The notes under the pieces: model-generated
Databases searched by the model: none
Seen by the model: only the letters and a program-made list of their open reading frames with translations
What the model was told of the DNA's origin: nothing
Shown: one piece after another, positions 26,902 to 53,813 of the stretch
Layout of the letters: the number at the start of each line of letters is the position of its first letter
Numbering within the stretch: the stretch's first letter is position 1
Translations under genes and position numbers: made by a program
Assembly: GCF_056746865.1 (NCBI RefSeq)
Contig: NZ_CM163382.1
DNA: 64,000 bases
Direction: 5' to 3' (one strand)

Positions 26902-27903
26902 TCAGAGTTTAGCGAATTTTTCGAGGGTGCGAATGAGCTGTGTGACGAAGCCATATTCGTTATCGTACCAGGCGACCGTTTTCACCAGTTGTAAATCGCC
27001 CACGGCGGTAATTTCGGTTTGCGTGGCATCAAACACCGACCCGAAATGGCTGCCTATGATATCAGAAGAGACTATTTCTTCATCGGTATAACCAAATGAC
27101 TCGTTATTGTTTGTCGCGTTTTTAAGCGCGTTGTTCACCTCTTCGGCAGTCACTTTTTTTCCAAGAATAGACACCAGTTCAGTCACCGAACCGGTTTTCA
27201 CGGGTACGCGTTGTGCATGACCTTTCAGTTTGCCGCTCAGTTCTGGGATCACCAGACCAATGGCTTTTGCCGCCCCCGTAGTGTGGGGAATGATATTTTC
27301 TGCCGCTGCACGTGAAGCGCGTAGATCTTTACCACGCGGGCCATCCACCAGTGACTGAGTGCCGGTATAGGCATGAATGGTCGTCATCGTGCCGACTTCT
27401 ATTCCGAAACTGTCGTGCAAGGCTTTGGCCATCGGTGCAAGACAATTAGTGGTGCATGACGCCACGGAAACAATGGTGTCGTTGCCATCCAGTGTGTCGT
27501 CATTGACGTTATAAACGATGGTTTTCATTTCACCGGCAGGGGCGGAAATCAACACCTTCTTCGCACCAGCATCAAGATGCGCCTGCGATTTCTCGGCGGA
27601 GGTATAAAAGCCAGTACATTCGACAATGATTTCTGCGCCTTTCGCTTTCCACGGAATATTTTTAGCCTCTTTTTCGGCGTAAACCGCGATACTTTTCCCA
27701 TCAACGATAAGTGAATCTTCCGTAAAATCAACGCGCCAGGGGAACGGTCCATAGTTTGAATCATGTTTCAGCAGGTAGGCGAGAATTTTTGGGGAAGTGA
27801 GATCATTAATAGCGACAACATCTATGTTGCTTTTGACTTCAAGTAATCGACGCAATACCAGTCGACCGATACGACCAAAACCGTTAATACCAACTTTACT
27901 CAT
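26902..27903 (-). CDS. gapC: Glyceraldehyde-3-phosphate dehydrogenase GapC, intact 333-aa ORF
   Basis: Full-length GAPDH with NAD-binding GFGRIGR and catalytic SCTTNC; no frameshift or internal stop. Confidence 0.85.
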
Positions 27904-28632: not shown

Positions 28633-28696
28633 AAGAAAACGCCTGTACTAAAACCGACCCGTGGTACAGGCGAAGAATACGGGTCTACATCGGAAG
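28633..28696 (-). ncRNA. rydC: RydC small regulatory RNA
   Basis: Reverse complement reads cttccgatgtagacccgtattcttcgcctgtaccacgggtcggttttagtacaggcgttttctt, which matches RydC as I remember it, including the terminal hairpin. Confidence 0.75.
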
Positions 28697-29111: not shown

Positions 29112-29309
<198 letters not shown>

Positions 29310-29650
29310 CTTGGTTCATTCGTTGGCCTCGGTTGATAGAAATATCGGTCGGGGCCTTCGTCTTTCTGATTCCCGGTTAGCCTGAAAACAGAAAGTCTCA
29401 GGCACCCGCAGGCATCCTATGAGTTTTCCTTAGGGACGAAAATAATCACTTCACGAAATTGCGTGCTGTTTTCCAGAATTTTTTGTCATTCGGTTTAGCC
29501 ATTCGTTACTCTCTTCATTCCAATAGCATTAATTTTCTCTGCAATAATTGTTGTAAAAATGTGACGCAAAGAGGTTTTTGGTCATAAGTAATTACCGTCA
29601 AGTGCCGATGACTTTCTATCAGGAGTAAACCTGGACGAGAGACAACGGTA

Positions 29651-39638: not shown

Positions 39639-40307
39639 ATGCGTACCACATCAATTGCGAAAGTTGCAGCTTTATGCGGCTTGTTGGCTCTGTCTGGTTG
39701 TGCCTCTAAAATCACCCAGCCAGATAAATATTCTGGTTTTTTAAACAATTACTCTGATTTAAAAGAAACAACCTCAGCAACAGGTAAACCTGTTTTACGT
39801 TGGGTAGACCCGAGTTTTGATCAAAGCAAATATGACAGCATCGTCTGGAACCCAGTCACTTATTATCCGGTACCGAAACCATCTACCCAGGTAGGGCAGA
39901 AAGTTCTGGATAAAATTTTGAGTTATACCAACACCGAAATGAAAGAAGCGATTGCGCAGCGTAAACCACTGGTTACCACCGCTGGGCCGCGTAGTCTGAT
40001 TTTCCGTGGGGCCATTACCGGTGTTGATACCAGCAAAGAAGGGCTGCAATTCTATGAAGTGGTTCCTGTCGCATTAGTGGTCGCGGGGACGCAAATGGCG
40101 ACGGGCCACCGTACCATGGATACTCGCCTCTATTTTGAAGGTGAGCTGATTGATGCAGCTACTAATAAACCGGTTATCAAAGTCGTTCGTCAGGGCGAAG
40201 GTAAAGACCTGAATAACGAAAGTACGCCAATGGCTTTCGAAAATATTAAACAAGTTATTGATGACATGGCGACCGATGCCACTATGTTTGACGTTAACAA
40301 AAAGTAA
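39639..40307 (+). CDS. ydcL: Lipoprotein YdcL (222 aa)
   Basis: Lipobox LSGCAS. Confidence 0.85.
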   Translation: MRTTSIAKVAALCGLLALSGCASKITQPDKYSGFLNNYSDLKETTSATGKPVLRWVDPSFDQSKYDSIVWNPVTYYPVPKPSTQVGQKVLDKILSYTNTEMKEAIAQRKPLVTTAGPRSLIFRGAITGVDTSKEGLQFYEVVPVALVVAGTQMATGHRTMDTRLYFEGELIDAATNKPVIKVVRQGEGKDLNNESTPMAFENIKQVIDDMATDATMFDVNKK

Positions 40308-40341
40308 TTCCAGCTGCGCCATCGTAAGATGGCGCTTTTTA

Positions 40342-41514
40342 TTATCGGTTTCTGTGAGCGATTAAATTCAACACCACGTAACAAACGCCTCCGGCAATTA
40401 ATCCCCAGAACGCAGAACCAATCCCGACCAGCGTCAATCCACTTGCCGTTACCAGAAATGCCACCACCGCCGCGTCGCGCTCACGCTCATTATGCAGCGC
40501 CTGATACAAACTGCCGCCAATGGTACTCAACAGCGCCAGACCTGCCAGCATCTGGATCCAACTTACGGGCAGGGCAGCCATCATCCCGGTAATAGCACTA
40601 CCAAAAAGACCTGCGAGCAAATAAAAAATGCCTGCAACGGCAGCTGCCAGCCAACGTTGATCTTTATCCGGATGCGCTTCCGGGCTTTGACAAATAGCCG
40701 CGGTGATTGCCGCAATACCGACGGAATAAACGCCGAAAGGGGAAAAAACAAGCGCCAGCAATCCAGTAAACACAATCAACGGCGAAACAGGAGCCGAATA
40801 CCCGGCAGCTTTCATTGCTGCGATACCCGGTGCGTTTTGCGATGCCATCGTCACCAGAAAAAGGGGGAGTGCAACGCTCAGACTGTGAGCAAACGAAAAA
40901 TCAGGGGTAATATAAGTGGGGAGAACGGGGTTAAAGACAACATCATTTGTGACAACGTCACCTTGCGCCATAACGATCACGATCCCAATAATCATCGCGG
41001 CAATTACCGCATAGCGCGGCGCAACGGCCCTGGTTGCCAGCCATACCAGCAACATACTGCCACACAACGTAAATTGACCATCCAGACTGGCAAACGCCTG
41101 TAAACCAAAGCGTAATAAAATCCCGGCAAGCATTGCCGCCGCAAGCGAGTGCGGAATAATGCGCATCAGACGAGCAAAGAGTCCCGTTATGCCGCAGAGG
41201 ACTATTAACGCGTTGGTGACAATAAAAACGCCGATGGCTTCGTTAAGTGTTAATCCCTGTAATCCGGTGACCAACAAAGCCGCGCCAGGCGTTGACCATG
41301 CGGTGAGAACAGGTACGCGATACCATAATGTCAGAGCCAGCGTACTGACGCCCATTGCCAGCCCCAGCGCCGTCATCCAGCCAGAGATTTGTGCAGTGGT
41401 GGCTCCGGCGACAATCGCTGCTTGCCAGATTATTGCCGCTGAACTGGCGTAGCCAATTAATACCGCCAGAAACCCCGCCAGTAGCGTGGGTGGAGGAATA
41501 GAAAACAGACGCAT
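40342..41514 (-). CDS. ydcO: BenE-family (benzoate-type) membrane transporter (about 390 aa)
   Basis: Multi-pass membrane ORF; start taken at MRLFSIPPPTLLAGF rather than the longer ORF-track extension. Confidence 0.8.
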   Translation of the reverse strand: MRLFSIPPPTLLAGFLAVLIGYASSAAIIWQAAIVAGATTAQISGWMTALGLAMGVSTLALTLWYRVPVLTAWSTPGAALLVTGLQGLTLNEAIGVFIVTNALIVLCGITGLFARLMRIIPHSLAAAMLAGILLRFGLQAFASLDGQFTLCGSMLLVWLATRAVAPRYAVIAAMIIGIVIVMAQGDVVTNDVVFNPVLPTYITPDFSFAHSLSVALPLFLVTMASQNAPGIAAMKAAGYSAPVSPLIVFTGLLALVFSPFGVYSVGIAAITAAICQSPEAHPDKDQRWLAAAVAGIFYLLAGLFGSAITGMMAALPVSWIQMLAGLALLSTIGGSLYQALHNERERDAAVVAFLVTASGLTLVGIGSAFWGLIAGGVCYVVLNLIAHRNR

Positions 41515-41605
41515 AGTCACCTCGTGCGTTATAACGTACAGGTACCGTAGCATTTGTCCGTTATAACGCACAAGTGATAAACTTCCGTTTTGCCGGAGGA
41601 GTCGC

Positions 41606-52436: not shown

Positions 52437-52658
52437 GTTAAATGTTAGTGGCTGTTATAGGGCGGCCACTATCGTTTTAGGTTCTGAGTGTAATGGTGAT
52501 TAAGTATCAGAATGATTACATTAATAACTAGCGGAAAAATTAGGCAGTTATTATGATCTAAATGTATGTTGGTGATTTTTCATCCTGTCATAGTTGATTC
52601 GCATAAGGCTTTAGAGTATCGTTATTAACCTAATAATTTATAAGTAGAAGTATTAACA

Positions 52659-53468
52659 ATGAAAGTTCAATTGTATAAATTCACGGAAGATAAAAATAAA
52701 ACCCTTACCTTCAGGTGGACGAAAAAACACTTTGAGTTTTGTATGGATAATAAAATCTTTTTAAATCATAAGGGGAAGAAGTCGTATAAAGAAAGAAATT
52801 TATTTCTTTTCTCAAAAGGTGACAAGATAACAATTGAAGATAATGTTATTGCTGAAGAATATTCAACAATGCCTGTAAAAAATTTCTCCAGTGTCGGCGC
52901 TTTTTCATTCCCGACCTGTCATTTTACAGGGAATATACATATAGGTCGATTTTGTAGTATTGCATCAAATGTAAAAATAATGGGAGGAAATCATCCTTTG
53001 AATCGTTTTACTACTCACATGATGACTTATAACGGTGAATTTGATAAGTTTGCTAAGAGTGAGTTTGAACGTAGCTGGACATTGAAACCATTCATTACCA
53101 AACCTGAAAATCCGATTATAGGAAATGATGTCTGGATAGGAAATGATGTTGTACTGAAAGGTGGCATCGCAATAGGTGATGGTGCTGTTATTGCTGCCAA
53201 TTCCGTTGTTACCAAAGATGTGCCCCCATATGCCATAGTTGCAGGAGTTCCTGCAAAAATAATCAGATTTAGATTTGATTCAAATGTTATTGATGAATTG
53301 TTGAGAATAAAGTGGTGGAATTATAATTACTCAGATCTTCCGGATAATAACAAATGTGATGATATAAATTATTTTGTTGAAGAGATGAATCGATTGATAT
53401 CAAATGGAAATATTCAAGAGATGGACTATAAAAAATTCAATCTTTCTGAGATATTTAGAGACCTATAA
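52659..53468 (+). CDS. Hexapeptide-repeat acetyltransferase of the XAT family (streptogramin A acetyltransferase Vat / CatB-like) with N- and C-terminal extensions, 269 aa
   Basis: AT-rich ORF with no K-12 counterpart that I recognise; core IGRFCSIA...GGNHPLNRF...IGNDVWIGNDVV...IGDGAVIAANSVVTKDVPPYAIVAGVPAKIIRFRFD...IKWWNY aligns by eye with remembered Vat(D)/CatB motifs; true start uncertain (weak RBS, alternative ATGs at 52743 and 52869). Confidence 0.75.
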   Translation: MKVQLYKFTEDKNKTLTFRWTKKHFEFCMDNKIFLNHKGKKSYKERNLFLFSKGDKITIEDNVIAEEYSTMPVKNFSSVGAFSFPTCHFTGNIHIGRFCSIASNVKIMGGNHPLNRFTTHMMTYNGEFDKFAKSEFERSWTLKPFITKPENPIIGNDVWIGNDVVLKGGIAIGDGAVIAANSVVTKDVPPYAIVAGVPAKIIRFRFDSNVIDELLRIKWWNYNYSDLPDNNKCDDINYFVEEMNRLISNGNIQEMDYKKFNLSEIFRDL

Positions 53469-53813
53469 TTATCTGTTCTGCATGATAAATGGGCAAGATA
53501 ACCAGTTCGGGGTTTGCAATTTCAATGGGACAGCGTCATCAAGGAGGTTGCAATCATCCTGCCATGCATATACTTTACGCCATCTTTTTATATTTACTTT
53601 ATTCCCTGAAAGTATAAAGCATTTATAGACTCCCGCGCGTCTAAAGTATTGATGATAGAAAAATGTGAAAACAAGGTTCCCTTTGAATCAGTAAGCTGTC
53701 TGTATAGACGACAGGAGGGGGATGTTTTCTACTTATTTCAATGTAGATGTCAGGAAAAAGAAGTAAATATTAAGGATAATGTTGTAAACCTGGAGAGTAT
53801 GAGATGATCTTGC

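Follow-up and report, generated by a model that had tools for sequence, protein, structure and literature searches.

The window analyzed here is a stretch of 64,000 nt from contig NZ_CM163382.1 of NCBI RefSeq assembly GCF_056746865.1, taken as one strand, 5′ to 3′. Two convergent genes nearly meet in it. According to the list of open reading frames, ydcL occupies 39639..40307 on the plus strand (222 aa; stop codon TAA at 40305-40307), and its product, a DUF3313 lipoprotein, matches Pfam DUF3313 with an E value of 5.7e-63. From the other side, ydcO occupies 40342..41514 on the minus strand (390 aa from the ATG equivalent to that of K-12; the start called by PGAP is longer, at 41553). It encodes a BenE-family transporter (Pfam BenE, E 2.7e-161) that ends in ...IAHRNR*, with its TAA stop at 40344-40342 on the minus strand. 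These coordinates leave a spacer of exactly 34 bp, 40308..40341, between the two stop codons, in agreement with the sequence-only reading of this DNA, which had described the genes as convergent, nearly abutting, and about 34 bp apart. The same gene names are used in the record of Escherichia coli strain 118UI, isolated from urine in Mexico City, the closed genome of which differs from the window by 3 SNPs in 64,000 positions (NZ_CP032515.1 1629904-1693903). In the literature, the best match for 118UI is an ST69 isolate, an indirect hint as to its phylogroup.

The 34-bp spacer

Most of the spacer is taken up by a terminator-like hairpin at 40316..40335 on the plus strand, with an 8-bp stem (GCGCCATC/GATGGCGC) that contains six G-C pairs and is closed by a GTAA loop. 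The hairpin begins 8 nt past the ydcL stop codon and is followed at once by the T-tract TTTTTAT at 40336..40342, which directly reaches the ydcO stop codon from the opposite side: base 40342 both ends the tract and, on the minus strand, ends that codon. The element GCGCCATC-GTAA-GATGGCGC with the tail TTTTTATTAT was the best result of a terminator scan. As RNA, it folds with −16.3 kcal/mol (z −3.1) on the plus strand and −15.4 kcal/mol (z −3.5) on the minus strand. The stem is invariant in the window, K-12, ATCC 11775, O157:H7, CT30, and EC17CM6, and the loop and upstream bases vary.

A GC-rich stem-loop, an immediate U-tract, and a position 3′ of a stop codon are all features of intrinsic terminators, and the spacer is predicted, from the consensus scan and folding, to be the Rho-independent terminator of ydcL. 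For ydcO, the hairpin would be at most a hairpin-only 3′ end. We rejected a bidirectional terminator, as on the minus strand the hairpin is followed by AGCUGGAAUUAC and not by a U-tract. At the gathering threshold, Rfam has no match in or near the spacer; its only matches in the window are the RydC small RNA (28633-28696) and the sok antitoxin RNA of the hokB locus (29256-29407), both as in K-12.

The IS609 insertion point in the window and in K-12

In K-12 MG1655, annotation places the insertion sequence IS609 between ydcL and ydcO (NC_000913.3 1503161-1504908, 1748 bp). When the whole window was compared by megablast with K-12 1441001-1529000, the blocks were collinear, with identities of 96.2-97.9% per block and 97.1% overall, and at 40342|40343 the window had 0 bp where K-12 had 1748 bp. 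The adjacent bases 40342..40343 are thus an unoccupied IS609 insertion point. The breakpoint was found at query 543/544 in about 3300 genomes. The left junction in K-12 reads ...GATGGCGCTTTTTAT|CCGGTGCGCC... (in a shorter form, ...GCGCTTTTTAT|CCGGTGCG), the right junction reads ...GGAGGATGTCAA|TATCGGTTTC..., and the junction in the window reads ...GATGGCGCTTTTTAT|TATCGGTTTC.... When the K-12 flanks are joined, they match the empty alleles of ATCC 11775 and an O157:H7 strain at 160/160 bases, and thus the insertion neither added nor removed host bases. It does fall within the stop codon of ydcO. In K-12, the last four bases of IS609 supply the final base of a Tyr codon and the whole of a TGA stop, so that YdcO gains one Tyr and ends in ...DRNRY*, as against ...HRNR* in the window.

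No trace of the element was seen elsewhere in the window. A blastn search with K-12 IS609 gave no significant match in the window (best, 21 nt, E 0.09), nor did a tblastn search with the InsQ protein (best E 1.7), and by DNA similarity, by coding sequences for TnpB/OrfB_IS605, and by coding sequences for a Y1 TnpA the window holds no member of IS609 or of the IS200/IS605 family. Because the finding is an absence, no chance statistic applies to it. The sequence-only reading had placed an IS609-family element with insQ at this point in K-12 and described it as missing here. The MG1655 annotation and the 0- versus 1748-bp alignment bear this out, and the comparison, which could have shown K-12 to be free of an IS at the site, showed one to be present. 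That reading had also called insQ the transposase gene. It was right that insQ sits in the K-12 element, but insQ encodes TnpB, and the real transposase gene is tnpA (yncK). The 34-bp junction without IS609 is a real and ordinary presence/absence polymorphism, and one that was already known.

The K-12 element holds yncK (b4578; a tnpA pseudogene with an in-frame TGA) and insQ (b1432; tnpB), the latter annotated in MG1655 as a “putative RNA-guided DNA endonuclease.” When the stop is read through, the yncK translation matches Pfam Y1_Tnp (E 1.8e-40), and InsQ matches OrfB_IS605 (E 7.8e-35), Cas12f1-like_TNB (2.4e-23), and HTH_OrfB_IS605 (3e-13). A Y1 HUH transposase together with a TnpB that has RuvC/OrfB and zinc-ribbon TNB domains places the element in the IS200/IS605 family. 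The right end of IS609 in K-12 (L001 6803-6919) gives a sub-threshold Rfam match to HgcC (22 bits versus a gathering score of 50, E 0.019) that stops at the IS boundary; such a match could reflect a TnpB guide-RNA scaffold, although its score falls far short of that threshold.

We compared the K-12 copy with three further copies, in ST2747 (inside a DUF3251 gene), Nord58 (inside a TetR-family gene), and strain 112 (between gltX and yfeD). The left-end/tnpA part is colinear among the four loci, with a mean column identity of 99% over the 539 bp compared (L001 5162-5700; L006, L007, and L008 2206-2744). All four copies have an intact tnpB. Three of the four have the same in-frame TGA in tnpA, and the O157 strain 112 copy has TTA (Leu) at that position. 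A variant with a defective tnpA has thus arrived at several sites, perhaps through trans-mobilization or through read-through of the stop.

The four independent sites also define the target. At 4/4, the left end of IS609, CCGGTGCGCC, is immediately preceded by TTTAT, and the right flanks are mutually unrelated, without target duplication at any site; from this, IS609 inserts 3′ of TTTAT without duplication. In the window, the pentanucleotide is found at 40338..40342 on the plus strand, as the last five bases of the T-tract. The locus thus has what an empty site should have, namely TTTAT at the left-end point and an occupied allele that, minus the IS, equals the empty allele. TTTAT occurs 144 + 111 = 255 times on the two strands of the window, and being so common, the motif alone marks no site but only where insertion can occur. 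It explains the possible place of insertion, and the ydcL–ydcO site is not thereby special. A hairpin that resembles a terminator, with its T-tract (CGGCAGG...CCTGCCGTTTTTTATTTAT), also directly precedes the strain 112 copy between gltX and yfeD (L008 2161-2205). The tails of terminators may repeatedly provide TTTAT targets. A different element, IS200C (about 709 bp; L004 850-1545), sits in the same ydcL T-tract in strain 47538, at window positions ~40336-40342, with the IS609 point lying a few bases further 3′.

The orientation of the K-12 copy is in keeping with its family. The plus strand of the window has a GC skew of +0.054, a positive value that identifies it as the lagging-strand template. 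The IS200/IS605 family is said, in work by Ton-Hoang and co-workers from 2010, to place the strand that carries the target and left end on the lagging-strand template, and the K-12 IS609 is oriented as this rule has it. In the literature on IS609 and insQ/TnpB, we found no description of the IS609 target, of a TAM, or of InsQ activity. The base-exact IS609 site, with its TTTAT target, its lack of duplication, and the split ydcO stop codon in K-12, is a mildly useful by-product of the present analysis.

Origin and possible consequences of the empty site

Among 5426 complete E. coli genomes, the K-12 left junction (ydcL–IS609) is present in 3268, the right junction (IS609–ydcO) in 3265, and the contiguous empty junction in 2042; a ydcL–ydcO gap of 1 kb or less, the empty ones included, is found in 2110. 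The site is therefore occupied in about 60% and empty in about 38% of the genomes, and up to about 68 (2110 minus 2042) may carry a small insertion such as IS200C. K-12 derivatives, ATCC 8739, W, and O111:H8 are among the occupied; the type strain ATCC 11775, O6:K2:H1, O157:H7, O145:NM, and the window strain are among the empty, the distribution over lineages being judged from this handful of named strains. The pattern TTTTTATTANCGNTTNCTNTNNGCNAT, when sought in contigs of species-representative genomes, was found only in a Bacteroidetes metagenome-assembled genome, as a chance match, and in no Escherichia, although ATCC 11775 contains the pattern. The survey also disposes of the idea that the junction is an artefact in which a repeat was collapsed out of the assembly. 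Nothing was found in favor of it: the breakpoint is clean, the window is only a few SNPs from a closed genome, and the same contiguous junction recurs in so many other complete genomes that we regard this explanation as ruled out.

The distribution is consistent with an ancestral empty state and a single old insertion passed down in the K-12-like lineages. We propose that the 34 bp would be the native junction of ydcL and ydcO in E. coli, consisting of the predicted ydcL terminator, and that TTTAT at the end of its T-tract would have served as the target for IS609. A single copy would have inserted 3′ of TTTAT in K-12-type lineages, with no duplication and with the ydcO stop codon split, and would then have been inherited by the occupied majority of sequenced E. 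coli. In the window strain the site most likely was never occupied, and its empty state would be ancestral rather than a product of excision. We assign this reading a probability of roughly 0.85.

Two other histories would yield the same sequence. First, the site could once have been occupied, with IS609 later removed by precise TnpA-mediated excision that restored the original sequence. Excision in the IS200/IS605 family is seamless and leaves no scar, so that sequence alone cannot separate a site that was never occupied from one that was vacated. Neither a duplication nor a scar would be expected here, and, because the joined K-12 flanks equal the natural empty allele, an excision product would look the same as the junction in the window. 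Nevertheless, excision seems quite improbable because the copy at ydcL–ydcO has a tnpA with an in-frame stop and 0 new IS609 insertions arose in mutation-accumulation lines of K-12 (PMC5009759). Moreover, the flanks of the empty junction fall into at least three haplotypes, those of ATCC 11775 and O157:H7 among them, and excision would have to have happened several times independently to account for all of the empty genomes.

Second, an occupied allele could have been replaced by homologous recombination with DNA from an IS-free lineage. The local haplotype is indeed unusual, in that the 160 bp around the junction are only 95.6% identical to those of most other E. coli, with just 178 genomes at ≥99%. 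But the whole 64 kb is similarly divergent from K-12, as the range of block identities shows, with no local patch at the junction, and the divergence there looks lineage-wide. We consider such a replacement even less probable than excision. An ancestral, never-occupied site is the reading that we prefer.

The sequence-only reading had gone further, describing the window as free of IS elements and as probably closer to the uninterrupted backbone. The first part is correct. The autotransporter gene ydbA, described there as intact, is a single coding sequence of 5820 bp (4370-10189), whereas in K-12 IS2D and IS30C break it into three pieces. Transposases account for 0/56 of the distinct features in the 118UI region, and the largest unannotated gaps, of about 400-430 bp, are too small for a complete IS. 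The second part is plausible but unprovable from sequence, since IS200/IS605 elements excise seamlessly. Nor can the window be derived from K-12 by taking out the IS elements alone. By megablast, window positions 3943-9073 span 5.1 kb where K-12 has 26.7 kb (1446202-1472897). The window has no feaR-feaB-tynA-paaZ..paaY cluster. The 5′ part of ydbA, together with IS2D and IS30C, likewise falls within the K-12 span; the 5′ two-thirds of the window ydbA is too divergent from K-12 for megablast.

Several smaller differences were seen along the window. Between hrpA and ydcF, 1155 bp (23196-24350) replace 141 bp of K-12 and encode an SMI1/KNR4-family protein, a small hypothetical protein, and a 66-bp coding-sequence fragment; the segment looks like an orphan toxin-immunity remnant. 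Between patD and yncL, 1326 bp that are absent from K-12 (52438-53763) carry a CatB-related O-acetyltransferase. On the K-12 side, the two alignments that flank this segment share 11 bp, suggesting that a short repeat lies at its boundaries. The gap (gapC) gene, a pseudogene in K-12, is annotated in the window as intact (26902-27903; type I glyceraldehyde-3-phosphate dehydrogenase). The uninterrupted ydcL–ydcO junction and the IS-free 64 kb are useful for annotation and for reconstruction of an IS-free backbone; otherwise, they matter little.

The empty site could, in principle, have a further role, as a target of the TnpB encoded by the occupied allele. TnpB studies (those of Karvelis and of Altae-Tran in 2021 and of Meers in 2023) reportedly show that the target motif of such elements doubles as the TAM and that the guide corresponds to the DNA immediately beyond the right end, on its 3′ side. 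By sequence comparison, the 20 nt next to the right end of IS609 in occupied genomes correspond to 40343..40362 on the plus strand of the window and would be a putative TnpB guide/protospacer. The window has TATCGGTTTCTGTGAGCGAT here, with one mismatch (position 14) to TATCGGTTTCTGTCAGCGAT of K-12; agreement with K-12 is 20/20 in the ATCC 11775 and O157:H7 alleles and 19/20 in the window. By analogy, the empty site might be cut by InsQ/TnpB, with the right-end RNA from an occupied allele as its guide, and it is a low-probability speculation that TTTAT followed by TATCGGTTTCTGTGAGCGAT would then be a near-perfect substrate for the nuclease of the K-12 element. If InsQ/TnpB were active, DNA from an occupied strain would, upon entry, lead to cleavage of the empty site and favor its repair from the IS-bearing copy. 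We regard such homing as unlikely. If it were true, homing could help to explain how an element with a dead transposase and an intact tnpB came to be found at one site in about 60% of E. coli. The pair of occupied and empty alleles is natural material with which homing by InsQ/TnpB could be tested in E. coli.

Comparison with known systems

The spacer resembles Rho-independent terminators found between convergent genes in having a GC-rich 8-bp stem, a tetraloop, and a U5 tract, placed 8 nt past the ydcL stop. It differs from symmetric bidirectional terminators, being without an A-tract upstream, and its U-tract extends into the stop codon of the gene that faces it. Relative to K-12 MG1655, the window differs in that the element itself is absent, with no IS609 or InsQ similarity in 64 kb; it is alike in the chromosomal position, in TTTAT, and in 19/20 of the bases that lie 3′ of the right end in K-12.

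The prototypes of the IS200/IS605 family are IS608 of Helicobacter pylori, with the target TTAC, and ISDra2 of Deinococcus radiodurans, with the target TTGAT. IS609 differs from both in its target, TTTAT, in its divergent tnpA and tnpB, and in the in-frame TGA that interrupts tnpA in 3/4 copies. In other respects IS609 is like them: it inserts 3′ of a fixed motif, in its case a pentanucleotide, without duplication, it combines a Y1 HUH TnpA with a TnpB, and near each of its ends lies an imperfect subterminal hairpin, the two being similar (CCCCATCCTTCAGGGCGGGG and CCACGTCCTTCAGGGCGTGG).
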